A stretch of DNA of 63,877 bases, filler included, from Ferroacidibacillus organovorans (lineage in GTDB: Bacteria > Bacillota > Bacilli > Alicyclobacillales > SLC66), in assembly GCF_001642725.1 (NCBI RefSeq). It is 4 parts of 4 records of this genome, joined end to end, with 100 filler letters (N's around TTAATTAATTAA, not from the genome) between each part and the next. Parts side by side here need not be neighbours in the genome. Positions count along the whole stretch, not along the records: positions 35,264 to 52,454 come from NZ_LSUQ01000057.1; 3 more parts are not named here. One strand, 5' to 3'. The position numbers were made by a program, and so were the translations under genes. Under the pieces are notes generated by a model. The model saw only the letters and a list, made by a program, of their open reading frames with translations, was not told the origin of the DNA and did no database searches. Shown here in pieces: positions 1,336 through 52,554 of the stretch; position 1 is the stretch's first letter, and each line of letters begins with the position of its first letter.

Positions 1336-1351
1336 TGTGACGAAGAGCACA
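1336..1351. promoter_or_regulatory. Fnr/Crp-type box upstream of the CGCGG gene
   Basis: TGTGA-CGAAGA-GCACA, 1 mismatch to TGTGA-N6-TCACA. Confidence 0.5.
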
Positions 1352-1737: not shown

Positions 1738-1799
1738 GCGTGATCCGTCCAAGAATGAAAAAATACAATTGAGGCTTATAAGGATGGGGAGGTTTGATC

Positions 1800-2909: not shown

Positions 2910-2939
2910 TTGACGAATTATAATATGTTCACTTATAAT
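2910..2939 (+). promoter_or_regulatory. SigA-type promoter overlapped by an inverted repeat (probable MarR operator)
   Basis: TTGACG-N18-TATAAT, overlapped by the ATTATAA-N9-TTATAAT palindrome at 2917-2939. Confidence 0.55.
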
Positions 2940-2978
2940 AATTGAGTATACGAAATAGGGTTAGGGGGAGAAAATAAA

Positions 2979-3404: not shown

Positions 3405-3450
3405 CGCAATGGAATTGAAAATTGATTTCTTAATGCAAGGGTGAGCAATT

Positions 3451-3906
3451 TTGGTGCGAAAATTTAGTTCCGAATTTGAGAAACCGGCTGATAGCCCTGG
3501 TTTTTTGCTTTGGCAGGTTTCAAATTTGTGGCAACGAAAACAACGAGATACATTAAAGACGCTTGACGTAACACACACCCAATTCGTACTTCTAACAACG
3601 CTGTTATGGCTCGAACAGTTGAATGAACCTATCACACAGGTTCAATTGGCACATCACACAAAGGTCGATGTGATGATGACATCTCAGGTGTTACGTACGT
3701 TAGAGAAAAAAGAACTTGTACATCGCAGTTCCCATCCTGCGGACACGCGCGCAAACCAAATTCACACAACAATGAAAGGAAAGGAAATCGTGGCAAAGGC
3801 GCTTCCGATGGTAGAACAGGTCGATCGAGAATTTTTTTCGCGAGGAATTGGAGATTGTGAACAATTTGTGCAGTTGTTTCAACAACTGTTAAACGAATCG
3901 CGTTAA
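3451..3906 (+). CDS. MarR family transcriptional regulator
   Basis: SPGFLLWQV, TQVQLA and DTRA winged-helix motifs. Confidence 0.9.
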   Translation: MVRKFSSEFEKPADSPGFLLWQVSNLWQRKQRDTLKTLDVTHTQFVLLTTLLWLEQLNEPITQVQLAHHTKVDVMMTSQVLRTLEKKELVHRSSHPADTRANQIHTTMKGKEIVAKALPMVEQVDREFFSRGIGDCEQFVQLFQQLLNESR

Positions 3907-3934
3907 GGCATATTTGTCGCATCCATCTTTATGC

Positions 3935-3976
3935 AAACACAACAAAACCGCGCGATCGCGCGGTTTTGTTGTGTTT
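3935..3976. terminator. Perfect 42-bp palindrome / bidirectional terminator
   Basis: AAACACAACAAAACCGCGCGA|TCGCGCGGTTTTGTTGTGTTT. Its core is nearly identical to the terminator at 885-908. Confidence 0.7.
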
Positions 3977-4222
3977 ACTTCAATCGAGGTAAAGAAGGAT
4001 TTTAGGATTGGAACGCATGTCTAGTCTGATCAGACCATGAAGAATTAGTCCGTTTGGATGGATTCCGCCTAGCAGGCTTATGTCTTACTCGCGCGCGAAC
4101 TGCGAGCTATGCTCGTGATGCAGTCGTAAACGATACGTACTCATCAGATGCGAGGCTCATCTTGAGGGGGGCGACGTTTACGACGTCGCGTGACACAGCA
4201 TGAAAGAAAGGAGTGAACTAAC

Positions 4223-5143
4223 GTGCATGACAAAGCGAAAAAGCGACGCATCCGCTACGGCATGCTTGGCGCTTCTGCAATGACCCTGCTCTTGTCAGGG
4301 TGTGGTCCTCAATATATGGTGCTTGATCCAGTCGGTCCAGTTGGACGAGAAGAGCTTCATTTAATTATACTCTCGGTCATCCTCACCGGAATTGTTATCA
4401 TACCTGTTTTGGCACTCTTAGTTTTTATCGTTTGGCGTTATCGTGACAAACCAGGCAACCGTGCGCCGTATCAGCCAAAGTGGTCTGAGAGCCGCGTCCT
4501 TGAAGTGATTTGGTGGGGGATTCCGATCGTGATCGTCGGCATTCTCGGTTACTTCACCGAAAAGACGACGTTTGCCCTTGTTCGACCGCCGGAAAACAAC
4601 ATCGCACCAATCACCATTGAAGTGACTTCGCTCGATTGGAAGTGGCTTTTCCAATACCCTGACCAAAAAATCGCAACTGTGAATTACGCGGTCATTCCTA
4701 CAGGTGTCCCGATCAATTTTGTGCTCACATCAGACGCCCCTATGAACTCATTTTGGGTGCCGCGACTTGGTGGGCAAGAGTACACCATGCCTGGAATGGC
4801 GATGCGTCTATGGCTTCAGGCGAATCAATCTGGGACGTATTATGGCCATGGCGCAAACTTCACAGGTCGCGGTTTCGCACATATGAACTTTAACGTCATC
4901 GCAAAACCTGCGACGCAATTTTATGGGTGGGTTCAGCGTGTGAAATCGACTTCACACCCGCTTACACGAGCGATTTACGCACAGCTTAAAATACCTAGCG
5001 TCATTGGAACAACCCAGTATTCTTCCATTCCGCCCAATTTATTTAACGGAACGGTATGGGCAGACGGTGGAAAATACATGCCGGGCATGCTGCCAGCGCA
5101 GGGTACGGGTTCCAACTCCATGAAGCACAATTCCACTCAATAA
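4223..5143 (+). CDS. qoxA: Heme-copper quinol oxidase subunit II (lipoprotein)
   Basis: Lipobox LLSGC, two TM helices, DWKWLF and NSFWVP motifs. No CuA cysteines, so a quinol oxidase type. Confidence 0.92.
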   Translation: MHDKAKKRRIRYGMLGASAMTLLLSGCGPQYMVLDPVGPVGREELHLIILSVILTGIVIIPVLALLVFIVWRYRDKPGNRAPYQPKWSESRVLEVIWWGIPIVIVGILGYFTEKTTFALVRPPENNIAPITIEVTSLDWKWLFQYPDQKIATVNYAVIPTGVPINFVLTSDAPMNSFWVPRLGGQEYTMPGMAMRLWLQANQSGTYYGHGANFTGRGFAHMNFNVIAKPATQFYGWVQRVKSTSHPLTRAIYAQLKIPSVIGTTQYSSIPPNLFNGTVWADGGKYMPGMLPAQGTGSNSMKHNSTQ

Positions 5144-5161
5144 GAAGGGAGTGACAGGCAC

Positions 5162-7132
5162 ATGCCAGTTTGGCTAACACATTTTACGACGACCTATTTG
5201 ATGTGGAATGAAGGCCCTATGATCTGGGGCTCAGATGTATTGATTCTTCTCACAATGCTTGGCATTGTTGTGACACTCACGCGATTGCGTCGGTGGAAAT
5301 GGCTCTGGCGTGAATGGCTGACAACGGTTGATCACAAAAAAATCGGCATCATGTATCTTCTTGCAGCACTTATAATGATGTTTCGCGGCGGCGTCGACGC
5401 ACTATTGTTGCGCACACAGCTCGCTGTCCCAGGAAATCACTTTTTAAGCGCCGAACACTATGATCAAATCTTTACGACACACGGTACGATCATGATTCTG
5501 TTTATGGCGATGCCCTTTATTTTCGCCTTATTCAATATTGTGGTACCGCTACAGATCGGCGCCCGCGATGTTGCGTTTCCCTATTTAAACGCGATTTCTT
5601 TTTGGTTATTCTTTTTTGGCGCCATGCTCTTTAATATTTCCTTCGTCTTTGGGGGATCACCGGACGCTGGGTGGGTCAGCTATCCACCACTCTCAGAGCT
5701 CGGGTTTGACTTTGGCCCCGGAGAAAACTACTACCTGCTAGCCTTACAGATTTCCGGTATCGGCAGCATCGCGACTGGGATCAACTTCTTGGTTACCATT
5801 TTTAAGATGCGTGCGCCCGGAATGAAACTTATGCGGATGCCACTCTTTTCATGGTCGGTTGTTGCGGCGAGTGTTGTCATCATTTTCGCCTTTCCGGCGC
5901 TGGCCATCGCCCTTGCGCTGCTTACGCTTGATCGGGTTGCAGGTACGCACTTCTTTACCATCTTACACGGTGGCGATCCGATGATGTTTGTAAATCTCTT
6001 CTGGGTATGGGGTCATCCGGAGGTGTATATCGTCATCTTACCCGCGTTTGGCGTTTACTCGGAGGTGGTCGCCACTTTCGCGCGAAAACGCGTCTTCGGT
6101 TACTCATCGATGGTGTTATCACTCATGCTCATTAGCGTCATCAGCTACTTTGTGTGGGCTCATCACTTCTTTACGATGGGCGCAGGGGCGGGCGTTAACA
6201 CGTTCTTTGCCATCGCGTCGATGCTTGTCGCCATACCGACGGGTGTCAAAGTGTTCAACTGGTTGTTTACGATGTTTCGCGGGCGGATTCGCCTGACACT
6301 TCCCATGCTCTGGACAATTGCCTTTGTCCCGTGCTTTACCATCGGCGGGGCGACCGGTGTGATGCTGGCCGCAGCGCCTGCAGATTATCAATACCACAAC
6401 AGCTACTTTCTGATCGCCCACTTTCATCAGGTCTTGATCGGAGGCGTCGTGTTTGGAATGCTCGCTGGTATGTACTACTGGTGGCCTAAAGTATTCGGCT
6501 TTATGCTCGATGTTCGGCTTGGAAAAATTGCGTTTTGGCTCTTTAACATCGGATTTTATGTCTGTTTCATGCCGCAATACGCGCTCGGTTTCATGGGGAT
6601 GCAGCGCCGCATGTACACCTACCCGACCGACATGGGCTGGGGAACGCTCAATTTTATCTCAACCATCGGCGCCTACATCATGGGACTCGGGTTTCTGTTC
6701 ATCGTCATTCAAGTACTTTACAGTATCAAACATGGGGAGCGCGACCTAACGGGCGATCCGTGGGATGCTCGGACACTTGAATGGTCGCTGCCATCTCCGG
6801 CTCCACACTACAATTTCGCCGTGATTCCAACGGTGACAGAGCGCGACATGTGGTGGGAACTCAAAGAGCGGAAAGAGACCGATCGTCTCAAACTGAAATC
6901 GGATATGATCACGCCGATTCACATGCCGAAAAATTCTGGTCGACCTTTCCTCATGGGAGTATCATTCTTCATCGCTGGATTCGGATTGGTCTTTGAATGG
7001 ATTCCTATCGCGGTACTTGGGCTCATCGGCATTCTACTCAGTTTACTCTTTCGAGCATTTGAGTATGGCGATGAGCACACCATTCCGGCTGATGAAATTC
7101 GCGAGACGGAAGCCGCATTGGGGAGGTTGTAA
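5162..7132 (+). CDS. qoxB: Heme-copper quinol oxidase subunit I
   Basis: DHKKIG, WGHPEVY, WAHH and AHFH ligand motifs. Confidence 0.95.
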   Translation: MPVWLTHFTTTYLMWNEGPMIWGSDVLILLTMLGIVVTLTRLRRWKWLWREWLTTVDHKKIGIMYLLAALIMMFRGGVDALLLRTQLAVPGNHFLSAEHYDQIFTTHGTIMILFMAMPFIFALFNIVVPLQIGARDVAFPYLNAISFWLFFFGAMLFNISFVFGGSPDAGWVSYPPLSELGFDFGPGENYYLLALQISGIGSIATGINFLVTIFKMRAPGMKLMRMPLFSWSVVAASVVIIFAFPALAIALALLTLDRVAGTHFFTILHGGDPMMFVNLFWVWGHPEVYIVILPAFGVYSEVVATFARKRVFGYSSMVLSLMLISVISYFVWAHHFFTMGAGAGVNTFFAIASMLVAIPTGVKVFNWLFTMFRGRIRLTLPMLWTIAFVPCFTIGGATGVMLAAAPADYQYHNSYFLIAHFHQVLIGGVVFGMLAGMYYWWPKVFGFMLDVRLGKIAFWLFNIGFYVCFMPQYALGFMGMQRRMYTYPTDMGWGTLNFISTIGAYIMGLGFLFIVIQVLYSIKHGERDLTGDPWDARTLEWSLPSPAPHYNFAVIPTVTERDMWWELKERKETDRLKLKSDMITPIHMPKNSGRPFLMGVSFFIAGFGLVFEWIPIAVLGLIGILLSLLFRAFEYGDEHTIPADEIRETEAALGRL

Positions 7133-7134
7133 TC

Positions 7135-7764
7135 ATGGCATTTATCGAATATGCTCTCCACGGACGTGTGGCGAACGAAGAAAAGCCGCTCGAGTATCAG
7201 GATCCAGAACAATCCATCAAAATTCTTGGTTTCTGGATTTTTCTAGCAACCGATATGTTGCTCTTTGGCTGTTTGTTTGCAACGTATCTCGTATTGCGCA
7301 CACACACGGACGGAGGATTGACCGCAAAACAACTGTTTGATGTTCCCGGTTTTGCGACTGAAACGTTTTTGTTATTGACAAGCAGCTTTACAGGCGGGCT
7401 CGCGACACTCGCGATGCGCAATCGAAATAAGTCGGCCGTGCTGGCCTGGATCGCCGTAACGGTGTTGCTGGGACTCGGCTTTCTCGGCTTTGAAGTGAGT
7501 GAGTTTGCTGCAAATGTGGCGAGAGGGGCAACGATGCAGCGCAGCGCCTTTCTCTCCGCATTCTACACACTCGTCGGTACGCACGGACTTCACGTATCGA
7601 TCGGCATCGGCTGGATGATTGTGACGTGGATTCAAATTGCCCGCAAAGGCATCACGCGGGTCACTGCGCGCAAGTTGTTTGTCGTCAATCTGTATTGGCA
7701 TTTTCTCGATGTGGTGTGGGTCTTCATCTTCACAGTTGTCTATTTATCTGGGGTGGTGATGTAA
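7135..7764 (+). CDS. qoxC: Quinol oxidase subunit III
   Basis: GFWIFL, GTHGLHV and YWHFLDVVW motifs. Confidence 0.93.
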   Translation: MAFIEYALHGRVANEEKPLEYQDPEQSIKILGFWIFLATDMLLFGCLFATYLVLRTHTDGGLTAKQLFDVPGFATETFLLLTSSFTGGLATLAMRNRNKSAVLAWIAVTVLLGLGFLGFEVSEFAANVARGATMQRSAFLSAFYTLVGTHGLHVSIGIGWMIVTWIQIARKGITRVTARKLFVVNLYWHFLDVVWVFIFTVVYLSGVVM

Positions 7765-7765
7765 G

Positions 7766-8104
7766 GTGAATGTGGAATCTGAAAAAGTGGATGGGGGAAT
7801 CCATCCAAAACATTCGGCGAAGAAGTACATTGTCGGATATCTCTCTTCTCTTGTGCTGACCGCGCTCGCGTACACATTTGCGCTAAAACGCTCCTTTACA
7901 CTAGGGCCGCTGCTCATCGTACTGATGGTGTTGGCTGGTCTGCAAATTGTGGTTCAATTGTATTTCTTTATGCACGCCACAGAGGGGGATGGACCTCCAT
8001 TCCATCTAGGAGCACTCGTACTTGGGCTCTTCTTTACGTTCGCCGTTGCGCTGATGTCTGTCTGGATCATGGGATTTCCTGCATTCAGCGCACGAGTTTC
8101 GTAA
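7766..8104 (+). CDS. qoxD: Quinol oxidase subunit IV
   Basis: YIVGYLSSLVLT and QIVVQLYFFMH motifs, last gene of the operon. Confidence 0.9.
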   Translation: MNVESEKVDGGIHPKHSAKKYIVGYLSSLVLTALAYTFALKRSFTLGPLLIVLMVLAGLQIVVQLYFFMHATEGDGPPFHLGALVLGLFFTFAVALMSVWIMGFPAFSARVS

Positions 8105-8109
8105 CGTAT

Positions 8110-8179
8110 CGCCTCGCCGCTGTACGTAAAGAGGCAAGACGCGGATGCGTCTTGCCTCTTTACGTACAGCGGCGAGGCG
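8110..8179. repeat. Perfect 33-bp inverted repeat with 4-nt loop between convergent genes
   Basis: CGCCTCGCCGCTGTACGTAAAGAGGCAAGACGC-GGAT-exact reverse complement. Confidence 0.9.
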
Positions 8180-8216
8180 TGTTGCAAAGGGTAAATCCCA
8201 TAACGTTCAGCGTTCG

Positions 8217-8327
8217 TTAGTATGCTCCGCCAGCCCCGCCACCGTAAGTTGGTACAAAGAGGAAGAACAGTACGAAAATAATCAAAAACACAATCGCCCA
8301 TTGGGTGTAGTTCCCAAACGTGCCCAT
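8217..8327 (-). CDS. 36-aa single-TM Gly-tailed microprotein (not in the ORF track)
   Basis: Translates as MGTFGNYTQWAIVFLIIFVLFFLFVPTYGGGAGGAY*, with a GAGGGA RBS. Paralog of 8371-8502. Confidence 0.75.
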   Translation of the reverse strand: MGTFGNYTQWAIVFLIIFVLFFLFVPTYGGGAGGAY

Positions 8328-8370
8328 GTGAATCCCTCGCTTTCCTTACCCATTCACTGAATTGAGAAAC

Positions 8371-8502
8371 TTAGTACGCGCCGCCAACGCCTGCACCCGT
8401 TGTGCCATAGCCGCCACCGATACCTGGAACAAGCAAGAAGAACAGTACGAAAATAATCAGAAATACAACAGCCCAACGCGTATATCCTCCAAATGTACCC
8501 AC
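8371..8502 (-). CDS. 43-aa single-TM Gly-tailed microprotein (not in the ORF track)
   Basis: GTG start, translates as MGTFGGYTRWAVVFLIIFVLFFLLVPGIGGGYGTTGAGVGGAY*, with a GAGGAGGG RBS. Many differences from the paralog are synonymous. Confidence 0.75.
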   Translation of the reverse strand: MGTFGGYTRWAVVFLIIFVLFFLLVPGIGGGYGTTGAGVGGAY

Positions 8503-8655
8503 TCACATTCCCTCCTCTCGTTTCACCTTCATAAGGTATGTGCATGAGCAGGTTGTGTACTGAGTCGATCGCCCGTTTTTAGAACTTGAGTCTAGATAAT
8601 CATGGAACGTTGCTCTAACCGAATTCTTGATGTGGGGAAGATTCTATGTAAAAGT

Positions 8656-8683
8656 AAAGAGCCCGTGTTCACGGGCTCTTTTT
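8656..8683. terminator. Terminator of the tRNA pair
   Basis: AAAGAGCCCGTG-TT-CACGGGCTCTTTTT hairpin directly after tRNA-Pro. Confidence 0.75.
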
Positions 8684-8684
8684 G

Positions 8685-8761
8685 TGGTCGGAGTTACAGG
8701 ATTCGAACCTGTGGCCTCCTGCTCCCAAGGCAGGCGCGCTACCAAGCTGCGCTAAACTCCG
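8685..8761 (-). tRNA. tRNA-Pro(UGG)
   Basis: Full cloverleaf CGGAGTT...TTGGGAG...GGTTCGAATCC...CCGACCA, 77 nt. Confidence 0.97.
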
Positions 8762-8775
8762 AAGTAAATCCATCG

Positions 8776-8858
8776 TGGTGCGGGTGAAGGGACTCGAACC
8801 CCCACGGTTGCCCGCCAGATCCTAAGTCTGGTGCGTCTGCCAATTCCGCCACACCCGC
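8776..8858 (-). tRNA. tRNA-Leu(UAG)
   Basis: GCGGGTGTGGCGGAATTGGCAGACGC...CTTAGGA...long variable arm...GGTTCGAGTCC...CCA. Confidence 0.97.
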
Positions 8859-8917
8859 ATGGTATGAAGATCTCGCCATCAGGTGGCTTAGGATTGAATC
8901 AAAACCACTGCTATCAC

Positions 8918-8946
8918 AATATAAAGGATGCACAGGGAGATGTCAA
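8918..8946 (-). promoter_or_regulatory. SigA promoter for tRNA-Leu/tRNA-Pro
   Basis: TTGACA-N17-TATATT on the minus strand. Confidence 0.7.
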
Positions 8947-9109
8947 GGAAGAATGACATAAAAAGAAGGAAATCTCCCATGATGAATGCAATTGTCGTAG
9001 TATAAAATGTAGAGGGGGTGCGCGATAAGATCGCGTGAAACCCTGATCATGCGCATCTATGATTCCTTTATGGGGGTGTGCGTGACGAATGAGAGTGGAG
9101 GGAGTCAAA

Positions 9110-9280
9110 ATGCGTTTAAATACGGGAGATCACGTGAAACACCCCGATCATCATCTTGACGGCCAAGTGATCGACGTTCAGATCAACCCGGCGTGCTTAT
9201 TACGTACACTCGTGATAACGTGGGAAAATGGCGAGATAGAGGAATGGAGCGAGTGGGAATTTGGCCCAATCGAAGACTGA
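9110..9280 (+). CDS. Small hypothetical protein (SH3/KOW-like look)
   Basis: GGAGGGAG RBS. GDHVKHP..G.V pattern. Overlaps the transporter start. Confidence 0.55.
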   Translation: MRLNTGDHVKHPDHHLDGQVIDVQINPACLLRTLVITWENGEIEEWSEWEFGPIED

Positions 9281-10340
9281 CGCGATTTCAACGCGCATTA
9301 GGGAATGGGTTCAATCGCGCGTTCGCGCAATGAGTCCCGCCTATTTTTCAGTGGTCATGGCGACAGGGATTCTCTCTGTCGGGTCAGAATTGAACGGTTG
9401 GAAAGCTTCTTCAAGTTTTTTTCTAGCGATCGCACTTATTTTCTACATCAGCTTATTGATTTTGTATGGGTGGAGGTGGACGCAATTCGCTTCACACATG
9501 CGGACGGATTGGGTTCATCCAGAGCGCAGCTTTGGATTTTTAACACTGGTAGCGGCGACGGATGTACTCGCGATTCGTCTCAATGGAACGCATGAGTTCT
9601 GGTTAATGAGTGTACTCACCGTGTTTGGACTCCTCTCGTGGATGGCGCTGCTGTACTTGCAGTTTGCGTATCTGATCTTTGAAAATGAACGCCCGCTTGC
9701 GGCGATTGTCAATGGGTCATGGCTGTTGGCACCTGTCGCAACGCAGTCGCTAGCAATCATTAGCGCGCTCGTCGCGGCGCACATCGGAGATGAGCGTGAG
9801 TGGCTCTTGGTCGCATCGTTTGCGTTTTGGGCGCTCGGAATCCTTTTTTATCTTTTATTTATCGTGTTTATTCTTTATCGGTTCTTTTTTAGTGGCGTAC
9901 GCCGGGAAGATCTCGCCCCATCGTACTGGATTAACATGGGGGCGATGGCGATCGCAACGGTCGCGGGGACGCACCTTGCATCGCCAGAATTGGGATCCCC
10001 CTTCTTGCATCTCATACACTCTTTTGTCGTCGCTCTCACCGTCATGATGTGGGCGTGGGGGAGCTTTTGGATTCCTCTGCTTCTCATCATGGGAGGATGG
10101 AAGTATCGCTCGTGGCATTCGCTCTTTCGCTATGAGACTGGCTTGTGGAGTGTCATTTTTCCGCTAGGTATGTATGCTGTGTCGCTTTCTTTCATCAGCC
10201 ACTTTCCAGGACTGAGCTTCTTGTCGCTTTTTGCACCGGTATTTCTTTTGATCGCAATTATGGCTTGGTGCATTACACTTTTGCTCTGGGTGATCGCCAC
10301 GGCGCAAGCGCTGAAAGGTTTGTACCAAGAGTCAGCTTAA
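9261..10340 (+). CDS. Tellurite-resistance/C4-dicarboxylate (TDT/SLAC1) family transporter
   Basis: PAYFSVVMATG, PSYWINMGA and WSVIFPLGMY motifs, about 10 TM helices. Start uncertain. Confidence 0.88.
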   Translation: MAQSKTDAISTRIREWVQSRVRAMSPAYFSVVMATGILSVGSELNGWKASSSFFLAIALIFYISLLILYGWRWTQFASHMRTDWVHPERSFGFLTLVAATDVLAIRLNGTHEFWLMSVLTVFGLLSWMALLYLQFAYLIFENERPLAAIVNGSWLLAPVATQSLAIISALVAAHIGDEREWLLVASFAFWALGILFYLLFIVFILYRFFFSGVRREDLAPSYWINMGAMAIATVAGTHLASPELGSPFLHLIHSFVVALTVMMWAWGSFWIPLLLIMGGWKYRSWHSLFRYETGLWSVIFPLGMYAVSLSFISHFPGLSFLSLFAPVFLLIAIMAWCITLLLWVIATAQALKGLYQESA

Positions 10341-10439
10341 TTTGTCAATCGGCCATTCGGACTAAATTTGAATCATCGTTTCGAATCTCTTAAAGGAGCG
10401 GAAGATGGAGCATAATGAGTGGAGAAGGGGGAAACGACG

Positions 10440-10877
10440 ATGAACCACATTCTGTATGCGACAGACGGTTCGAGCGCGTCACGCGAGGCGATTCCAATGA
10501 TTTCTGATTTTTTGAATCGCTGGACCGAAGCAAAACTGACCGTTCTCTATGTTTCGACAGCTTATCACGATCCGCTCTATGCGGGGAGCATTCCTGGAGT
10601 TCCAACCCTTGCAGAACCTGAGTATAACGACGAGATCGTCGCCGCGATAAAAAAGGAAATTGTCGAGGAAGCTTTTTTTAAGTATGGCGATCGCATTCGT
10701 TTTGAGCAACATGTAGGTTATCCAGCGACGGTCATCTGTGAAATCGCAAAAGAGCGCTCTGCAGATTTGATCGTCATGGGCAGTCACGGCAGAGGCACGC
10801 TTGATCGATTGCTGATTGGAAGCGTGAGCCACGGTGTCCTCAATCGATCTCACGTGCCAGTGCTGGTTGTGCGCTGA
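10440..10877 (+). CDS. Universal stress protein
   Basis: ILYATDGS, DLIVMGSHGRG...IGSVS and PVLVV motifs. Confidence 0.93.
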   Translation: MNHILYATDGSSASREAIPMISDFLNRWTEAKLTVLYVSTAYHDPLYAGSIPGVPTLAEPEYNDEIVAAIKKEIVEEAFFKYGDRIRFEQHVGYPATVICEIAKERSADLIVMGSHGRGTLDRLLIGSVSHGVLNRSHVPVLVVR

Positions 10878-10898
10878 TTGCGATACCTGATTCCGAAT

Positions 10899-10941
10899 TA
10901 AGACAGCGGGGATGCTGAAACACATCCCCGCTGTCTTTTTT
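10899..10941 (+). terminator. Intrinsic terminator after usp
   Basis: AAGACAGCGGGGATG...CATCCCCGCTGTCTTTTT. Confidence 0.8.
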
Positions 10942-11145
10942 AGTACCCGAGTAGCGCTTGCGGTGTTATTTGCGCCAACGGGAAGAGTTGCGAACCTTTT
11001 GCCGTGTTCTTCCACGTCAATAGGAATTTTTGAGTCGTAGAATCCATTACGCTAGAATGGGAGGTGTTGAGCTGATGGACGCATTCACGTACGATTGTCG
11101 CTGGAATGGATTTGCGCGATGGCACAGAAGCGGAAGGGGAGTTTG

Positions 11146-11781
11146 ATGAATTTTCATCACACGTTTGTACAAAGCAAAGTGAATCATAAACAAACCTTGA
11201 TTCTCTTGCACGGGACAGGAGGCGACGAACATGATCTGCTCTCGCTTGGAACGTTCTTGGCGCCACACGCTTCGCTTTTGGGGATTCGTGGTAAGGTGAA
11301 GGAGGGGCAGGCAAATCGTTTTTTTCGTCGACTCTCTGAAGGAGTATTTGACGAAGCGGATTTGCTCTTTCGAACACGTGAACTCTCGTCCTTTCTTGAT
11401 GAGGTAAAGGATCACTATGGACTGTGGGATAACGAGTGGATCGCAGTCGGTTATTCGAACGGCGCCAATATCGCGGCGAGTATGTTACTCCTTGAACCGG
11501 CGGTGTTAACGTCTGCACTCCTCTTTCGCGCGATGATGCCGCTCACGCCTCCCCGCTTACCTGATCTCAAGCGCCACTCTGTCTATCTGTCCTCTGGACG
11601 CGAGGACCCGATTGTACCTCATGCGTCGAGTGAAAGATTAGAAGAAACACTTCGGGCAGCTGGCGCCGATGTGACGCATGATTGGCAGAACGCTGGACAC
11701 GGGGTGCTGCAATCCGAATTTACGAGTGCTAAAACATGGTTGGCATCGCATACTGGGAAACCTTGGGGGGATGAGCCATGA
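11146..11781 (+). CDS. Alpha/beta hydrolase (phospholipase/carboxylesterase, MhqD-like)
   Basis: LLHGTGG, GYSNGA nucleophile, DPIVP and AGH motifs. Confidence 0.88.
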   Translation: MNFHHTFVQSKVNHKQTLILLHGTGGDEHDLLSLGTFLAPHASLLGIRGKVKEGQANRFFRRLSEGVFDEADLLFRTRELSSFLDEVKDHYGLWDNEWIAVGYSNGANIAASMLLLEPAVLTSALLFRAMMPLTPPRLPDLKRHSVYLSSGREDPIVPHASSERLEETLRAAGADVTHDWQNAGHGVLQSEFTSAKTWLASHTGKPWGDEP

Positions 11782-13469
11782 AGGCGCTCTATTGGGGATT
11801 CACTGCGATGTGGGATGAATTGAGCCGACTCGCGCAGAAATACCCGACGCTCATGCGGGTCGAGGTTATGGGGACGAGTCGAGAAGGGCGCGCGATTCCG
11901 GTTGTGACGCTGACTCAGTTTGCGCGCGCAACAGCGGAAGAAAAATCGGCCGTTCTCGTCGACGCGAACATACACGCAGGAGAAGTGACAGGGAATGCCG
12001 CTGCGATGTACTGGATCACACAGTGTCTTGAAATGTATGGAAATGACCAGGAAATTACAGCATTGTTAGACGATCACACGGTGTACGTTGTCCCGAGGCT
12101 TTCCGTGGATGGCGCTGAAGCTTACTTGACAACACCTGCATGGTTGCGATCAAGCCCCCACACGTATCCCTATTCCGCACCGCCAGAAGGATTTTATCCT
12201 GACGATGTAAACGGCGACGGCGTCATCCTGCATATGCGTATTCCTGCAGAAGACGGCGCGTTTGTTCCGGATGAGTTGGATCCGCGTGTGATGCGACAGC
12301 GCAGGCCTGGTGAAATTGGGGGAACCTACTATCACGTATTTCCAGAAGGGCGCATCCATCGCCAATCTCGCTCCGGGGATCTGCCACCGTTTGCCAGAGC
12401 GTACAACCGCGCGCGCAGCGGCATGGATTTTAATCGTAATTTCCCGATTCGCTGGGCGAATGAAGCAGGACAAGACGGTGCCGGCCCATTTCCACTCTCG
12501 GAACCTGAACTGAGATGTTTTGCACAATGGATCATCGCCCATCCAAACATTGCTGCCTATGCGGCGCTACACACGTCAGGCGGGGTCATCCTGCGACAGC
12601 CTTCAACTGGAGATGACACCGTTTTATCGTCATTTGATCGTCTTCTCTTCACGCGTGTCGCTGATATGGGCGCAGAGGCCAGCGGGTACTTTGCAGGTTC
12701 AAACTTTGAGAAGTTTGCGACAGGTCACGAAGCGGTGTTGATGCCGGGCGCCGCAGATGACTGGATGTATGATCATCTCGGGATTCTCGGATTTACCATC
12801 GAGCTTTGGGATTTGGCGCACCGCGCGGGTGCTCGCGGCTATGGCGAGTACGGAATGCGCCATATGATCCAACGAACGCCTGATGAACGCACGGACGATG
12901 AGCGGAAAATCTATGCCTGGGTGGATCGGGAAGCTATTGATCAAGGGGTTTTTCCCTGGACTGCGTTTCATCACCCCGATTTTGGCGATGTAGAAATCGG
13001 CGGACTTCATCCTAAATACGTCATTCAAAATCCACCTTTACATCTTTTGGAAGAGGAGTGCGCGCGCATTTCGCCGTTTTTAACGCGACTTGGATTGAGC
13101 ACGCCGAAACTTCGCATTCCTTATCTCCGTGTTACAAAAGAGGCGGATCATGTGTATCGCGTCGTTGCAGAGGTTGCAAATGGCGGCTTTTTGCCGACAA
13201 CGAGCACAGAGAAAGGAAAAACGCATACACTTGACAAACTCACAGCCACGTTGGAGGGGACTGTTGAATTCCTTTCCGGAAGCTCGCCTTACATCATGGA
13301 CCATCTCGATGGGTATGGCGGCCGCGATGCGTGGGCAACGCCGATTCGTCAGCGCGGTGTTGTGGAGTGGGTGGTGCGCGGGGCGTCTGACGAGGAAGTT
13401 ACGATCAGTTTTTTTGCGCCACGCGCGGGTCGTGTTTCCCGATCGTTCAGGTTGTCCTTTGAGGCGTGA
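11778..13469 (+). CDS. M14 family zinc carboxypeptidase
   Basis: HAGE, DFNRNF, SEPE and LHT zinc and substrate motifs. Confidence 0.9.
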   Translation: MKALYWGFTAMWDELSRLAQKYPTLMRVEVMGTSREGRAIPVVTLTQFARATAEEKSAVLVDANIHAGEVTGNAAAMYWITQCLEMYGNDQEITALLDDHTVYVVPRLSVDGAEAYLTTPAWLRSSPHTYPYSAPPEGFYPDDVNGDGVILHMRIPAEDGAFVPDELDPRVMRQRRPGEIGGTYYHVFPEGRIHRQSRSGDLPPFARAYNRARSGMDFNRNFPIRWANEAGQDGAGPFPLSEPELRCFAQWIIAHPNIAAYAALHTSGGVILRQPSTGDDTVLSSFDRLLFTRVADMGAEASGYFAGSNFEKFATGHEAVLMPGAADDWMYDHLGILGFTIELWDLAHRAGARGYGEYGMRHMIQRTPDERTDDERKIYAWVDREAIDQGVFPWTAFHHPDFGDVEIGGLHPKYVIQNPPLHLLEEECARISPFLTRLGLSTPKLRIPYLRVTKEADHVYRVVAEVANGGFLPTTSTEKGKTHTLDKLTATLEGTVEFLSGSSPYIMDHLDGYGGRDAWATPIRQRGVVEWVVRGASDEEVTISFFAPRAGRVSRSFRLSFEA

Positions 13470-13558
13470 GCGATTGATTGAATCGTGCATGTTTGATTTG
13501 CGCTGATTGGGCAGGCGTGAGATCATGGGATCGGCGATTAGAAAAAAGAAGCCCGCGC

Positions 13559-14584
13559 CTAAAACGCGCGGGTATACTGTTTAGGAACATCGGGTGTCGC
13601 GCGCAGCGCAGTTGCTGCGTGGAGTGGCCAGTAAGGGTCTTTGAGCAATCCGCGCGCGACGGCGACAAGATCAGCGTCTCCGTTTGCAATGACAGCTTCT
13701 GCAAGCGCGGGATCTTCGAGCCGGCCCACTGCGATCACAGGGGTGTGGAGCGCTTCTCGAATGGCGCGCGCGAACGGCACCTGGTAGCCAGGCGATGTTC
13801 CTGGTCGTCCACCTGAACCAATCGGACCTTCGCCGCCAGAACTCACGTGAAACAGATCGACACCCGCTGCTTCATAGGCTTTGGCCAGTTCAATCGTGTG
13901 GGACAAGCCGTACCCGCCTTCAACATACTCTACGGCAGAGAGTCTCATGATCAGTGGCATGGAGGGTGGAATCACCGCTTTTACTGCGCGAATGACCTCG
14001 ACGCCAAAGCGCGCCAGATCTTGCCCGTACGCATCTTGTCGCTGGTTTGTGAGCGGAGATTGGAACTGATGGATCAGATAGCCGTGTGCTCCGTGAATTT
14101 CAAGTGTGTCAACACCCGCTTTGACTGCGCGAATCGCCGCGTCTGCAAATTTTCGCACCATCGTTTGAACCTCATCGACCGTCAGCGCGCGCGGCATTTT
14201 ATAGCGCTCGCCAGGAAAGGGAATCGCAGAAGGAGCGACCGGTTGTGGCGCATCTTCTGCTTTGCGCCCTGCGTGCCCAAGCTGAATCCCGATCTTTGCG
14301 CCGTGCTCGTGAACCGCATCGATGATGCGCGTAAATGCAGGGATGTGATCGTCGGACCAAAGTCCGAGATCATAGTCGGTAATTCGACCGTCCGGCTCTA
14401 CGTCGGTCATTTCCATGATGACAAGGCCGACGCCGCCGATTGCGCGCGTGACATAGTGAACAAAGTGCCAGTCGTTTGGAATTCCGTCTTTTGCAGTCAC
14501 GGAGTATTGACACATCGGCGCCATGACAATTCGATTCTTAAGATGAAGTTGTCCCTTTTCAAAGGGTGTAAATAACTCTGCCAT
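13559..14584 (-). CDS. NADH:flavin oxidoreductase / old yellow enzyme (YqjM-like)
   Basis: NRIVMAPMCQYS, QLGHAGRK and HGAHGYL motifs. Confidence 0.92.
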   Translation of the reverse strand: MAELFTPFEKGQLHLKNRIVMAPMCQYSVTAKDGIPNDWHFVHYVTRAIGGVGLVIMEMTDVEPDGRITDYDLGLWSDDHIPAFTRIIDAVHEHGAKIGIQLGHAGRKAEDAPQPVAPSAIPFPGERYKMPRALTVDEVQTMVRKFADAAIRAVKAGVDTLEIHGAHGYLIHQFQSPLTNQRQDAYGQDLARFGVEVIRAVKAVIPPSMPLIMRLSAVEYVEGGYGLSHTIELAKAYEAAGVDLFHVSSGGEGPIGSGGRPGTSPGYQVPFARAIREALHTPVIAVGRLEDPALAEAVIANGDADLVAVARGLLKDPYWPLHAATALRATPDVPKQYTRAF

Positions 14585-14696
14585 GAACAATTCCTCCCAA
14601 AGTCATTACGCTGTTTCTCATTTTGCGACAGCTTTTTTTAAAAGTTTACCTATTTTACGTCATTCATGCCAGTGATAGAGAGGAATTCACAACACA

Positions 14697-15329
14697 ATGA
14701 CAGCGTCTCCCAAAAAACGAATCAATACAAACTCAGTCATTTTCATGGTCATCGTGGCCGCATTGCTGCTCATTGCAACTATGTTTTATCCAGTTTCCAC
14801 GTCGCTTGGACAGGGCATCAATGAGAATGTCATCTCGCGGTTTGCCGGAGTCTACAATATAAGCAGCCATCAATTTGTTCTTGCGTTTTACAACCAAAAC
14901 ACAGAGCAGGGCGAAGTGCCGATCGCCCCGCTGCCGCTCTCTTTGTTTCACGCATCAGCCATTCCCAATCAACGGGTTACGCAGGATGATCTGCCAGCGC
15001 TCTTGACCGATGCGATGCAAACAAACGCAACACTACTCGAGCAAGAACTTGGAACGAACTATAATGCGCCTGGATTTCTTGCACCATTTCCACACAGCCC
15101 TGTCGCCTATACGGTCTCATTTCTAAAAGACTTGGCAAAGCAAAAGATGAATCTTGCAGCTTTTGGCGGACCGAACATACCACCCGGCTCAGTCCCGTAT
15201 GGTAAATTGCCAGGCGGAGTTTTACATATCGATACGAAGGCGGATGGGAATGTGATCGCCCAGTGTCAGCCTGGACAGACGCCGCCCGTTTTAAAAGCGC
15301 TCAACCCGTCAATCGTCTCCTTTGCGTAA
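14697..15329 (+). CDS. Hypothetical exported or membrane-anchored protein
   Basis: GAGGA RBS, basic N-terminus followed by a hydrophobic helix. No recognisable family. Confidence 0.65.
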   Translation: MTASPKKRINTNSVIFMVIVAALLLIATMFYPVSTSLGQGINENVISRFAGVYNISSHQFVLAFYNQNTEQGEVPIAPLPLSLFHASAIPNQRVTQDDLPALLTDAMQTNATLLEQELGTNYNAPGFLAPFPHSPVAYTVSFLKDLAKQKMNLAAFGGPNIPPGSVPYGKLPGGVLHIDTKADGNVIAQCQPGQTPPVLKALNPSIVSFA

Positions 15330-15339
15330 CGCCTTCGCG

Positions 15340-16479
15340 TTATGCATTGGATGACATCGCAATCGGAAACCAACCAGGTGTGTGCGTGATGGCATTCCAC
15401 AATGGCGTGGGCACGACGAGCCGTTCTTGATCGCTAAGGGAGAGTTCCGTCGCGATGGCGTGCTCATCGCCCCGCTCCACTTTTTGCACCCAGTCCGGTT
15501 CGATGATGATCTCGCGCCCCAGAGCGATCAGAGCACATCCTGTTGAAGATTGCGCGTCAATCGCATCGTCTGGTGTCTTGATCGATCCGACGCCGATGAC
15601 TGGCAGATCGTTTCCCGCGCGCTTTACGATGAGTGCGATGCGAGAGGTTGACTGATCTGATCCTGATTTTGGCGGTGTGCGGTAGTCGGTCGCGGAAACG
15701 TGGAGATAGTCCAACGCCTTGCTTTTCAGCGCGTCAATCAACACGTTTGTATCTTCCATTTTTAGTCCCTGTTCATGTGCCTCTTCAGGCGAAAAACGGT
15801 AACCGATCAAAAATTCGTTTTTTGCGTGCTCCTTGACAACACGCGTCACTTCATCAACGATCATGAGTGGAAACGTCAATCGATTTTCCCTTGAACCGCC
15901 GAATCGATCGTTACGCTTGTTTGTGTAGGGTGAGTAGAATTGCTGGATCAAATAGCCATTTGCTCCGTGGAGTTCGACACCGTCAAATCCGGCTTCAATG
16001 GCGCGGCGTGTCGCTTCGCCAAAATCGCGCACGATCTGCACGATTTCTGGCTCTGTCAAAGGGCGCGGCGTCGGTGCACCTTCTTTTTCTTCAGCGACAT
16101 CACTCGCGCTGACGACGTCGCGATTGGGAACGAGGTCTGGCGCGCACGCGCGACCCCCGTGAAAAATTTGCAGAACCGCTTTAGCACCTTGCCTTTTTAT
16201 GGCGCTCGCGAGGCGAGATAGCCCCTCAATGCGTTCGTCACGTTCGGCGCCAAACTCCCCAGGGAATCCTTTGCCGCTTGGCGAGACGAAAACGCAGGCT
16301 GTGATTACCATACTCACACCGCCAGTGCGACGCTCATAGTAGCGAATTTCATCGTCAGACACGGTTCCGTCAGGGTGAGATGAGAAGTGTGTCATCGGAG
16401 CCATGATGATGCGATTCTTCAACTCGGCACCTCTTCGTAGGCGAATCGGTTGAAAAAGCGGCTGGTAAGATGAATTCAA
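15340..16479 (-). CDS. NADH-dependent flavin oxidoreductase (YqiG-like)
   Basis: NRIIMAPMT, HGANGYL and GYRFSPEE motifs. TTG start with GGGAG RBS chosen over the longer ORF. Confidence 0.9.
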   Translation of the reverse strand: MNSSYQPLFQPIRLRRGAELKNRIIMAPMTHFSSHPDGTVSDDEIRYYERRTGGVSMVITACVFVSPSGKGFPGEFGAERDERIEGLSRLASAIKRQGAKAVLQIFHGGRACAPDLVPNRDVVSASDVAEEKEGAPTPRPLTEPEIVQIVRDFGEATRRAIEAGFDGVELHGANGYLIQQFYSPYTNKRNDRFGGSRENRLTFPLMIVDEVTRVVKEHAKNEFLIGYRFSPEEAHEQGLKMEDTNVLIDALKSKALDYLHVSATDYRTPPKSGSDQSTSRIALIVKRAGNDLPVIGVGSIKTPDDAIDAQSSTGCALIALGREIIIEPDWVQKVERGDEHAIATELSLSDQERLVVPTPLWNAITHTPGWFPIAMSSNA

Positions 16480-16594
16480 GAAAAACACTCCCTTTTTTGA
16501 TATAACTAAACTTATTAAAGCGTCTCGACTCATTGTAGCTTTCTGTGTGACACGCGTCAAACCTAAGTGGGCTATGGAAAGAGGAGGAATTTTT

Positions 16595-17224
16595 ATGTAT
16601 ACACCCGCTTCATTCGGCATGCATGATGCTGAAACGTTTGAACTCATGCGTTCATATCCGTTTGCTACATTATGCTCAGTTTCAAATACTGACATGCTTG
16701 TATCACATGTGCCGCTCGTGTTCAAAGAAGCGTCAATGACGCTTCACGGACATTTTGCGGCAGCCAATCCTCACGCGAAAATTCCCGAAGGATCCACAGT
16801 GCTGGCCATTTTTCATGGTCCGCACAGCTATATCTCTTCAGGCTGGTATGAAGAAGAGCGCGCTGTTCCAACGTGGAACTATCAAGTGGTGCACGCGAAA
16901 GGAACGATCCATTTTTACGAGGAGAACGAACTGCGCGACAGCGATCTAAAGCAACTCATTCTCCAACATGACCCCCATTTGCCTCTGGTGGATTCGCTCC
17001 ACGAGGGATGGGTTCAAGCGATGGCACGAGGGATTCGCGGTTTTTACATTTCTGTGAAACAGCTCGAAGGAAAGTCTAAATTAAACCAGAATCGATCACT
17101 GGAAGATCAGCGTCGCGTCGCACAAAGATTGCAGCATTCAAACCGTGAGGAAGAACGCGAAGTCGCGTCTCGCATGGATAAAAACCTGAAGACTCGTCAC
17201 CCCTCTGACGGCGCAGAGGGGTGA
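16595..17224 (+). CDS. paiB: FMN-binding negative transcriptional regulator (PaiB family)
   Basis: MYTP..F, GPHSYIS..WY, VPTWNY and KLNQN motifs. Confidence 0.88.
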   Translation: MYTPASFGMHDAETFELMRSYPFATLCSVSNTDMLVSHVPLVFKEASMTLHGHFAAANPHAKIPEGSTVLAIFHGPHSYISSGWYEEERAVPTWNYQVVHAKGTIHFYEENELRDSDLKQLILQHDPHLPLVDSLHEGWVQAMARGIRGFYISVKQLEGKSKLNQNRSLEDQRRVAQRLQHSNREEEREVASRMDKNLKTRHPSDGAEG

Positions 17225-17231
17225 CGGAGGA

Positions 17232-17659
17232 TTATAGATCGCGCAAGTCGTTTAGAACACCGTGATCCAAGCGTTTGATCACTTCGGTTAAGAGCGCTAC
17301 ACCGTGGTCGAAGTCTTCTTGGTGGTAGACAGCTGCGTGGCTGTGAATATAGCGCGTGGTGCAGCCAAAGGCGACGGAGGGAACGCCGGAGCCGTACATG
17401 TGAAAACGTCCTGCATCCGTACCACCCCCCGCGATCGATTCGACTTGTAGTGGAATTTTTGCATCGGACGCGGTGTCCATGATGAAGTCGCGAAAGCGCG
17501 GGTTGGGGAGCATTGAACCGTCATAGATCAGTAAAATTGGGCCTTTGCCGAGTGCTGAAAGGGCATCGTAACCATCGATGCCCGGCGTGTCACCAGAAAT
17601 GCCGACATCGAGCGCGATTGAAACATCCGGTTTGATGTGATGGACAAGCGTTTGTGCGC
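17232..17659 (-). CDS. M42 family aminopeptidase, C-terminal part (5' end lost at the contig gap)
   Basis: SIALDVG, GGGTDAG and RYIHSH motifs. The frame stays open up to the gap. Confidence 0.88.
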
Positions 17660-17759
17660 NNNNNNNNNNNNNNNNNNNNNNNNNNNNNNNNNNNNNNNNN
17701 NNNTTAATTAATTAANNNNNNNNNNNNNNNNNNNNNNNNNNNNNNNNNNNNNNNNNNNN
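17660..17759. other. Artificial contig-join spacer
   Basis: N run + TTAATTAATTAA (stops in all frames) + N run. Confidence 0.97.
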
Positions 17760-35163: not shown

Positions 35164-35263
35164 NNNNNNNNNNNNNNNNNNNNNNNNNNNNNNNNNNNNN
35201 NNNNNNNTTAATTAATTAANNNNNNNNNNNNNNNNNNNNNNNNNNNNNNNNNNNNNNNNNNNN
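35164..35263. other. Artificial contig-join spacer
   Basis: N run + TTAATTAATTAA + N run. Confidence 0.97.
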
Positions 35264-41125: not shown

Positions 41126-42064
41126 TTACACCGCGCTGATCACCATCGCGGCTGCCATGACCATTAAGTAGATCAGCGAGAACTTGAACATCTCAGTTGC
41201 CCACGCCACGTCATCGGTCGCGCGATACCCGCGCACCGCTTTAACAATCCACCAGAGACCCAAAACAACTGCTGTGGCGAGATAAAGCAGGCCAACGGCG
41301 TGTGTAAAATAGAGCAGCGTCGACACAGGCAGAAGAAGAACCGTCCAAAAAACCATCTGACGCTTTGTCGCATCGAAACCGTATAAGACCGGAACGAGCG
41401 GGATACCCGCCGCCGCGTATTCTTTTACGCGTCTCATACCAAGCGCAAAAAAGTGTGGCGGTTGCCAAATAAACATGAATGCAAAGAGCAAGAAAGCACT
41501 CCAACTGAGCGAATTGCTCATCGCTGTCCATCCGATTAGCGGAGGCATTGCGCCGGATATACTTCCAATCACCGTACTGAGCGACGTGGTGCGTTTGGTA
41601 AGCCTCGTATAGACAATAACGTAAAAGAACAGTCCGATAAAGGCCATGAGCGCCGATAACCCATTCACATACAGGCCCAGCATCAAAATGCCGAGCGCCG
41701 CAAGCGCGGATCCGAGCGTAATCACAGACCATGCAGGAAGGCGATTGTTCGGAAGGGGTCTCTTCATCGTGCGCGACATCAGTTGGTCAATATCGCGGTC
41801 CATAAAGTTGTTCATCGCGCATCCACCCATGACGACAAGACTGCTGCCCGCCAAGGTTAGCATGGTGGTTGAGAACACTGGATGGCGCGTCGCGCCGAGC
41901 CAGATGCCAACGAACGTCATCATTGCATTTGACATCGTGATTCCCGGTTTTGTCACATTGATCAGATCGCGCATGATGCGCTGATACGCTTTCTTAGGGT
42001 CGATCTCGGCTAGCGCCATTGCCGTTGCATTTGCATCTGAAGAAATCACTGCCTGATCACTCAT
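41126..42064 (-). CDS. ctaB: Heme o synthase (protoheme IX farnesyltransferase)
   Basis: TKPGI, NNFMDRDID..M.RT..RP and WQPPHF motifs. Confidence 0.95.
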   Translation of the reverse strand: MSDQAVISSDANATAMALAEIDPKKAYQRIMRDLINVTKPGITMSNAMMTFVGIWLGATRHPVFSTTMLTLAGSSLVVMGGCAMNNFMDRDIDQLMSRTMKRPLPNNRLPAWSVITLGSALAALGILMLGLYVNGLSALMAFIGLFFYVIVYTRLTKRTTSLSTVIGSISGAMPPLIGWTAMSNSLSWSAFLLFAFMFIWQPPHFFALGMRRVKEYAAAGIPLVPVLYGFDATKRQMVFWTVLLLPVSTLLYFTHAVGLLYLATAVVLGLWWIVKAVRGYRATDDVAWATEMFKFSLIYLMVMAAAMVISAV

Positions 42065-42131
42065 CGATTCTACACCCCTTTGACTACAACTTCTGCGGGA
42101 CGGCACTCTCTTCTTTTACAAAAAATCAAGC

Positions 42132-43094
42132 TCAAGAGTGTGCCGCCACAAGCGCCTTTTCTCTCTTTTCGCGAACCTTAACACGCACCGACGCGAGATC
42201 AAGCAGCACAAGTGCCAAAAAGTACGCGACCACAGTTACCAACGCCGTGGCGCCTGCAAAGTGCAGCGTATCAGAAATCACGGACAGCTTGGTTTGCAGT
42301 GTGATGATACCGAGCACAATCTGATAAAACAATAGTCCGACCAAGGCGATCGACAACCCGCGATATTTTCCTTGTTTTGCAGACACGATCACAACCCACG
42401 CAACGGCCCCCGTCACAAGCGCTGTAAATCCAACATGCAAAATGAGCAAAAAGATCGATACGGTGAGGTTTGGCATAACGTGTTGGTGATGGCTCAAAAG
42501 GTATGCATTTTGCCCATACAAAGCCTCACTGTAGCCACCGTGACGGAAAAAACCGCCGATCAACGCCTGAACAAAAATCGTCGCGGTCGCCCACAGTACA
42601 GGCTTGCGAAACGGTTTCGCGTCGTTTGCCCGCGTCGCCAAATCCTGTTCGAGGTTTGCCGTTTTCAATTGCCGGTGCTCGCGCCACCCAACCGCCGTCA
42701 TCGCAGCGAGAACACCCAAGAGAATCATGCTATTCCCGACATCAATCGTCGTGAATGCGCCAGGCAATACAAGAACAACAATCAGCGCGCCAAGCACCAC
42801 CTGCGTCGCCAAAAAGAAGAAAGATAAGATCGAGAGTCGACGAACAAGGCGATCGCCACGGTGAACCCACCACATGCGTATAGCATTGACAGGAATGAGC
42901 ACACTAGCGAGAAACGCAACCAATCGATGAATGTACTCAACGAGTACCAAACCGTGCAGCGGCGGAATGAGCGTGCCGTCGCACAAAGGCCAATTCGGTC
43001 AGACAAAGCCTGCATTAAGCCCGACGACAAGCGCGCCGAGAACCGACAATAAGAAGAGAAAAACGGTTGTCGCAAGCGGCAACTTATATCCCAA
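42132..43094 (-). CDS. ctaA: Heme A synthase (type 1) with in-frame TGA at codon 32
   Basis: GAGGAGG RBS + TTG start gives MGYKLPL...GLNAGFV*PNWPLCDG...EYIHR... The TGA (42999-43001) replaces the first conserved Cys of C-x-x-W-P-x-C. The rest of the frame is intact, 320 codons. Confidence 0.85.
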
Positions 43095-43375
43095 GGGAGA
43101 GCCCCTCCTCACATGCATACAAAAAGACCATTATGCATGTCATCATGGCCTGCGATGCTTATTCTACTATGAATCAATCACCACAGAAAGCAGAAACATC
43201 CGCCTGCAGTTCCAGTAACATCAATCGTCCAGTCTCTACCTTCAAGCGAGGATGCATCCGTTCTGTAAGCGTTTTCTCCCTCCTCCACCAGACAAAAATT
43301 GCGCGCCAAGCGCATCGTCCACAATGAAAGATTCATAATATCAGCCTAACTATAGCACACCCCTATCCATATCGG

Positions 43376-52454: not shown

Positions 52455-52554
52455 NNNNNNNNNNNNNNNNNNNNNNNNNNNNNNNNNNNNNNNNNNNNTT
52501 AATTAATTAANNNNNNNNNNNNNNNNNNNNNNNNNNNNNNNNNNNNNNNNNNNN
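52455..52554. other. Artificial contig-join spacer
   Basis: N run + TTAATTAATTAA + N run. Confidence 0.97.

Follow-up and report, generated by a model that had tools for sequence, protein, structure and literature searches.

In the heme A synthase CtaA, the pair of cysteines in extracellular loop 1 is disulfide-linked and needed for activity, and a second pair is dispensable (Lewin & Hederstedt 2016 and Niwa 2018, as cited in excerpts of PMC8239418 and PMC12808453). Bacterial selenoproteins are found mainly in anaerobic pathways and are rarely retained by aerobes, according to the main text of a 2026 review (PMC13188914). Here we describe a ctaA gene from Ferroacidibacillus organovorans (assembly GCF_001642725.1) in which the codon for the first cysteine of the loop-1 pair is TGA. 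The gene lies in a stretch of 63,877 nucleotides, hereafter called the window, at positions 42132..43094 of the minus strand. Comparison of sequences suggests that the TGA is in all likelihood decoded as selenocysteine (Sec), which would make the product a heme A synthase selenoprotein.

The in-frame TGA of ctaA

The ctaA coding sequence (CDS) comprises 320 codons, from a TTG start at 43094-43092 to a TGA stop at 42134-42132. Direct reading places a ribosome-binding site, GAGGAGGGG, at 43102..43110 (minus strand), with GGAGG at 43108-43104 and a spacing of 9 nt to the TTG. The product begins with M-G-Y-K-L-P-L, and the TTG start is favored because orthologs begin at the equivalent MGY(K/R). 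Codon 32 is TGA (42999..43001, minus strand), within NAGFV-TGA-PNWPLCDG, and past it the frame is unbroken up to the stop. The ribosome-binding site, the start, the 320-codon frame and the TGA had all been proposed in a first-pass annotation of this DNA, and the minus-strand read confirms them. The proposed Sec32 stands in for the first cysteine of the loop pair. Its partner in the U-x5-C motif is Cys38 (TGC, 42981..42983, minus strand), which is invariant in the 9/9 sequences of the clade alignment and corresponds to C37 in A2 numbering, which begins at residue 2.

The product matched the Pfam family PF02628 (COX15-CtaA) with 97.6 bits (cut-off 29.9). An AlphaFold model (pLDDT 81.9, pTM 0.83), for which nine clade members were used, shows eight long helices and places the codon-32 residue in the loop after helix 1; U32 and C38 both lie between model helices 3-26 and 48-76, i.e. 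in extracellular loop 1. In a Foldseek comparison of the model with the PDB, the heme A synthases of B. subtilis (6A2J) and Aquifex (8AW5) were the sole matches at E<=0.001. By HMMER alignment, the TGA residue falls on the first cysteine of GQGCGrQWPLCHG in 6A2J and Cys38 on the second, in agreement with the earlier suggestion that the TGA occupies the conserved redox cysteine of the CtaA pair. VEYIHR of the product aligns with IEWSHR of 6A2J, and residues E52, H55, H184, H201, H219 and H277 are invariant across the clade. The translation has no cysteine in GGFFRHGGYSEALYGQNAYLLSHHQHVMPN, so that loop 3 is without a second pair, and because of this absence we assign the product to type 1.0 / 1C. 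The sequence identifies it as a heme A synthase of the Cys-pair type with redox residues in loop 1 only, which is predicted to convert heme O to heme A.

The helix-4 histidine of B. subtilis CtaA aligns with an aspartate in the product (window 42700-42760, minus strand, residues ~125-135), in a region where the alignment is weak. This aspartate sits in TTIDV(G/A)NS, which is invariant throughout the clade in Sec and Cys forms alike.

In-gene stops of ctaA were searched for in 41 related genomes and then in all 64 genomes of the order. A TGA was present at the homologous codon in seven ctaA genes from five genomes and four genera, namely two genes each in the genome of the window (G000) and in G001, and one each in G003, G006 and G009. 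The in-gene stop was always TGA and always at the first-Cys codon (7/7 genes), in genes whose products share 46-94% identity. Since it recurs in this way, the TGA cannot be attributed to chance. The same alignment column held TGT or TGC in all 8 of the Cys orthologs examined, and relatives nested among the TGA forms carry TGT. The TGA is thus conserved across genera rather than strain-specific. Stops flagged in three further genomes (G803, G809 and G123) were all upstream of the start codon, hence not in-gene, and were discarded.

Both flanks of the TGA are under purifying selection. Over the 29 codons upstream of it, summed pairwise differences at codon positions 1:2:3 amounted to 170:76:354, and the window gene differed from its G001 ortholog by 10 nucleotides and no amino acid. 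The stretch from the TGA to any restart codon (PxWPLC...) is conserved as in the Cys forms. The first-pass annotation had considered a nonsense mutation or a base-call error at least as likely as selenocysteine. TGA is indeed one base from TGT or TGC, and ctaA is recorded in truncated form in public protein sets, as if a TGY-to-TGA mutation or a miscall had killed the window copy. However, this explanation is refuted by the seven genes in five genomes that share the TGA with intact frames, and by the distribution of upstream differences over codon positions. As a check on the reads by way of independent assemblies, contigs assembled in two further studies, from runs X6 and X7, span the site and show TGA, not TGC or TGT. 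Each contig is one base off the window, both changes being at synonymous third positions, and that of X6 is near-identical to the window and possibly not independent of its source. The contig of a third run (X8) stops one base into codon 32 and does not bridge the TGA. Moreover, both ctaA paralogs of G000 carry the TGA while the genome encodes 6-7 matches to heme-copper oxidase subunit I. A pseudogene or a sequencing error is therefore extremely unlikely.

Metagenome contigs carrying this DNA include some from mine drainage and mine tailings, and no RNA data set was among the sets listed as carrying it. Scans of metagenome and genome contigs together yielded loci L176-L263, of which 87 of 88 had the Cys-Cys motif, and the sole in-gene TGA was that of the G006 locus, from the genome contig scan; one pattern of the metagenome contig scan required Cys codons, which biased that scan against Sec forms. 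The genome contig scan itself gave two relevant loci, neither of them new. A count of Sec forms across the phylum with the Pfam model was dropped, as its alignments mostly begin from position 74 on and are blind to an N-terminal TGA.

Selection on both flanks would likewise be seen if the enzyme were made in two pieces, with the UGA ending a 31-residue peptide of one helix and the other seven helices made from a downstream start. Public gene calls do begin downstream of the TGA (P0002, starting MCDGTL, P0005, P0006, P0009 and P0010). However, the restart is not conserved, as the first in-frame start is 4 codons past the TGA in the window copy and 13 codons past it in the paralog, and no ribosome-binding site was seen before the downstream starts in the window. 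In some copies, the strongly conserved PxWPLC(D/N)G would be left untranslated. Nor does a split gene account for a stop that is invariably TGA, invariably at the Cys codon and found in genomes with Sec machinery. We consider such an arrangement very unlikely compared with selenocysteine at codon 32.

Selenocysteine machinery of the genome

The first-pass annotation had made its proposal depend on selA, selB, selD and tRNA-Sec, and all four were found in G000. The tRNA-Sec scored 63.3 bits (cut-off 47) and was called SeC(tca) by ARAGORN. The scores of selA (567 bits), selB (372 bits) and selD (388 bits) were all above the curated cut-offs, and selD carries a TGA of its own, at SG-U-GCK. Within the family, selA was above the cut-off in 17 of 19 genomes, including all 5 genomes with a TGA in ctaA; the two genomes without it are 60% and 65% complete.

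Six more G000 genes encode a Pfam domain that spans a TGA at a redox cysteine. Five of them encode three AhpC/TSA proteins (TPGUT, TPVUG, WUPNC), a thioredoxin (WUPGC) and a Thioredoxin_3/PDO-like protein (TUPYC), and are located at C1:124000-124452, C93:1157-1663, C11:33621-33929, C53:13635-14168 and C76:8341-9024. The sixth (C19:7843-8247, minus strand) encodes a BrxC-type monothiol bacilliredoxin (PF11009, 102.6 bits, domain 27-123) with the TGA at the active site, TTUPVS. BrxC bacilliredoxin is absent from the main text of the 2026 selenoprotein review (PMC13188914), and the Sec-type BrxC may be another unlisted selenoprotein family. The selenoprotein scan of G000 was a crude ranking by coding potential, in which selD was placed 445th. 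Pfam was run on six candidates chosen by eye among the top 150, and because only these six were scanned, the selenoproteome of G000 is probably larger than the set of genes found. According to the main text of the same review, formate dehydrogenase (FdhA) is the most widespread bacterial selenoprotein. Neither of the two formate dehydrogenase alpha genes of G000 (C84:3444-5450 and C3:21854-23860) has an in-frame stop, and FdhA is therefore not a Sec user in this genome.

The hairpin downstream of the UGA and the history of the TGA

The selenocysteine insertion sequence (SECIS) of the E. coli fdhF type is a hairpin in the coding sequence directly 3' of the UGA, with a small apical loop of a few nucleotides. 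Downstream of the ctaA UGA, a conserved SECIS-like hairpin was found at 42950..42991 (minus strand). It consists of a lower stem (42991-42988/42953-42950), an upper stem (42984-42975/42963-42954) and an apical loop (42974-42964); its 5' end lies 11 nt from the first base of the UGA. The lower stem pairs GGCC of the Trp-Pro codons with the His-Gly-Leu codons, and the upper stem pairs the Cys-Asp/Asn-Gly codons with the Pro-Leu-His codons. Folding of the 75 nt that start at the UGA gave the hairpin in the minimum free energy (MFE) structure of 7/7 Sec genes, and the RNAalifold consensus agrees. In these genes, the apical loop measures 11-13 nt and an invariant GG is located 25-26 nt from the UGA. 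The ctaA hairpin resembles the fdhF-type SECIS in its location inside the CDS, ~11 nt downstream of the UGA, and in its invariant GG. It differs in the size of the apical loop and in that the GG is predicted to be paired; binding by SelB is putative.

The first-pass annotation had put forward a different SECIS candidate, a small hairpin GUGC-GACG-GCAC at 42973..42984 (minus strand) with a weaker GAAU/AUUC lower stem. This alternative local fold exists and GAAU and AUUC can pair, but it is seen only in the window copy and its near-identical G001 ortholog. Because the other ctaA of G000 is unable to form it, it was rejected as a shared element. The GUGC arm itself is used in the conserved hairpin, where its partner is GCAC at 42957-42954. 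A second small hairpin, GUACUCGUUGAGUAC, at window 42933-42947 (minus strand) is encoded by VLVEY. It is probably a by-product of the protein sequence, being predicted not only in the Sec forms but also in the closest Cys form.

In the gapless alignment of the Sec genes, 90.8% of 98 cells were paired, compared with 28-53% when the 3' partners were slid by 1-3 columns. Double-sided changes occurred at three pairs. The clearest was pair 27-39 (CG, UA, UG and AU, with one AA), which joins two four-fold degenerate third positions in Gly and Pro codons. Sec genes retain 12-13 of the 14 pairs, whereas G008, which is the nearest Cys form, retains 11 and the remoter Cys forms G018, G040 and G036 retain 7-8. 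The hairpin is thus conserved in the Sec forms and decays in Cys revertants. When synonymous codons were permuted within each gene, z ranged from -1.67 to -2.62 in five of the seven Sec genes and from -0.45 to +1.5 in four Cys genes.

Maximum-likelihood analysis of 28 CtaA sequences grouped all seven Sec genes with two Cys genes in a single clade (support 98/95). Within it the earliest branch is G009 (Sec), G003 (Sec) and G008 (Cys) pair as sisters (support 100/99), and the two paralog pairs from G000 and G001 form sister groups; the tree is midpoint-rooted and its inner forks are poorly supported. One Sec gain and two reversions from TGA to TGT add up to three events, whereas Cys ancestry would call for four gains. 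Because fewer events are needed and the hairpin is shared, these sequences lead us to prefer a single origin of Sec in the clade with two reversions.

A TGA was also found at the other residue of the pair. In another family, among 401 genomes of the class that were sampled, two of four ctaA genes have a TGA at the partner cysteine (CSDWPL-TGA-NG) while congeners have Cys. This TGA is followed by YCCUCC-GUU-GGAGGG, in which 6/6 pairs can form in the TGA forms, compared with 3/6 and 4/6 in the Cys forms, and all four genomes have selA and selB. We read the TGA of this second lineage as an independent recurrence. Altogether, putative Sec-type ctaA amounts to nine genes from seven genomes, which belong to five genera and two families.

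Several observations weigh against selenocysteine at codon 32. The support for Sec decoding is computational throughout, resting on comparisons of sequences, folds and models. The search for selB and tRNA-Sec covered G000 and left out G003, G006 and G009. Conservation of the residues WP, CDG and PPLHG largely determines the stem of the hairpin, and Rfam gave chance-level matches only, with no family matching the hairpin. The covariation score was matched by 6 of 500 shuffles; it comes from seven related sequences, and the tool warns that relatedness alone can beat shuffles. Under codon permutation, the hairpin of the window copy reached a z of only -0.64 (83 of 300 permutations were as stable) and that of the G001 ortholog -0.55. 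The support from the hairpin accordingly lies in its conservation and not in the window sequence alone. Finally, the loop of 11-13 nt contrasts with GGN-type loops of 3-4 nt in five other G000 Sec genes, those for selD, the thioredoxin, the WUPNC redoxin, BrxC and the PDO-like protein. There, GGC, GGU, GGG or AGGU loops sit on short GC stems; the loop of the PDO-like gene was read by eye and not from an MFE fold.

The weak hairpin of the window copy against the synonymous null would also fit Sec-independent read-through, in which a near-cognate tRNA (Cys or Trp) decodes the UGA and ctaA is leaky and down-tuned. Read-through at a low level would again keep both flanks selected. However, the Sec machinery of G000 is complete, and at least seven further genes have a TGA at a redox cysteine. 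Read-through also leaves unexplained why the hairpin persists in Sec forms but is eroded in Cys forms, and in the second lineage the TGA at the partner cysteine is again followed by a short GC-rich stem, here with a GUU loop. We consider Sec-independent read-through quite improbable, and decoding of the TGA as selenocysteine by far the better explanation. The candidate Sec-CtaA of the first-pass annotation thus gains support from the conservation of the TGA, the Sec machinery and the correspondence to a redox cysteine.

Genomic setting, proposed function and relation to known systems

Directly downstream of ctaA is ctaB (41126..42106, minus strand), which encodes a heme O synthase of the UbiA family (Pfam PF01040, 201 bits). 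Its open reading frame (ORF) opens with GTG at 42106, and the ATG at 42064, preceded by AAGGGG, is the likelier start. G000 has a second ctaA-ctaB pair, with ctaA (L010, C44:1142-2104) again followed by ctaB. The protein encoded by this ctaA is 62% identical to that of the window, and its hairpin is stronger, with a perfect 8-bp upper stem. It had been noted earlier that loss of ctaA would deprive the qox oxidase of the window of heme A unless a paralog exists. A paralog does exist, yet its codon is TGA as well. A third, shorter COX15/CtaA-like ORF (L081, C3:24549-25235) encodes 262 aa and scores 53.9 bits; its translation shows no loop-1 Cys pair. N runs are located at 17660-17759, 35164-35263 and 52455-52554 of the window (three pairs of 44-base runs). 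The window combines several contigs of the assembly; contig C55 corresponds to positions 1-17659, and ctaA is carried by contig C57.

In the mechanism we propose, SelB would bind the hairpin of the mRNA and, with tRNA-Sec, direct the reading of the UGA at codon 32, so that selenium is inserted there. Sec32 would take the place of the first cysteine of CPxWPxC, in the extracellular loop just past transmembrane helix 1, and a Sec32-Cys38 selenylsulfide would form where B. subtilis CtaA has a disulfide. Sec is usually the mark of catalytic redox residues. As it is predicted at either residue of the loop-1 pair in two lineages, we argue that the pair would be redox-active rather than structural only. 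The advantage of Sec may be that, at the acid pH outside the cell, a selenol, unlike a thiol, would stay ionized and reactive.

Because both ctaA copies of G000 carry the putative Sec and the genome has 6-7 matches to heme-copper oxidase subunit I, respiration may be selenium-dependent in this organism. A much wider extrapolation, which we regard as tentative and rather unlikely to hold in full, is that heme A synthesis and all respiration with heme A oxidases are selenium-dependent in this group of Bacilli from acid habitats, that the loop-1 pair is catalytic, and that Sec was recruited at least twice, once per residue, because a selenol is reactive at acid pH. The enzyme in which Sec is predicted here, on the outer face of a polytopic membrane protein, requires oxygen and supplies aerobic terminal oxidases with their cofactor.

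Public protein sets hold the products of Sec-type ctaA only in N-terminally truncated form, with 244-288 residues. Because of this truncation by gene callers, Sec-type genes would be overlooked in sequence surveys of heme A synthase types, or assigned to the wrong type. A Sec-type heme A synthase is absent from the excerpts of PMC8239418 and of a 2026 survey of 8,093 heme A synthases. It is likewise absent from the main text of the 2026 review (PMC13188914), which treats more than 110 families of prokaryotic selenoproteins, and from the excerpts of a 2022 selenoprotein review (PMC9312934). A literature search gave no paper linking heme A synthase with selenocysteine, the co-mentions of ctaA/COX15 being unrelated among the titles listed. 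NCBIfam release 20 had no fitting model (best score 25 bits, cut-off 550). That Sec-CtaA represents a new selenoprotein family is well supported by the sequence comparisons.

With the thiol-redox selenoproteins (thioredoxin UxxC, peroxiredoxin and DsbA-like proteins, as described in the main text of PMC13188914), the proposed Sec-CtaA shares the use of Sec for one cysteine of a redox pair and the common occurrence of Cys homologs. It differs from them in being a polytopic membrane enzyme of heme biosynthesis, without a thioredoxin fold and with the pair in an extracytoplasmic loop.

Compared with B. subtilis CtaA (6A2J, type 1B / class B), the window protein belongs to the same Pfam family and has the same fold (TM-score 0.68/0.70), with a pair of redox residues in the loop-1 motif that follows helix 1 and with E..H conserved in helix 2. 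The two proteins share 21% identity. The first redox residue is Cys in B. subtilis and predicted Sec here, and the spacing is C-x6-C there and U-x5-C here. The window protein lacks the second Cys pair in the C-terminal half, and the LH motif of helix 4 appears as ID, in a region of uncertain alignment.

The type 1.0 / 1C (class C) CtaA of 'Alicyclobacilli iron-oxidizers' (Degli Esposti et al., 2021, PMC8239418, in the excerpts covered) shares with the window protein the single loop-1 Cys pair and the long second half. One protein of this type, P0014 of Kyrpidia tusciae, is 42% identical over 91% of the query and has the same family and the same gene neighborhood. The members of this type described in those excerpts have Cys at both positions of the pair, whereas the window ctaA is predicted to have Sec at the first.
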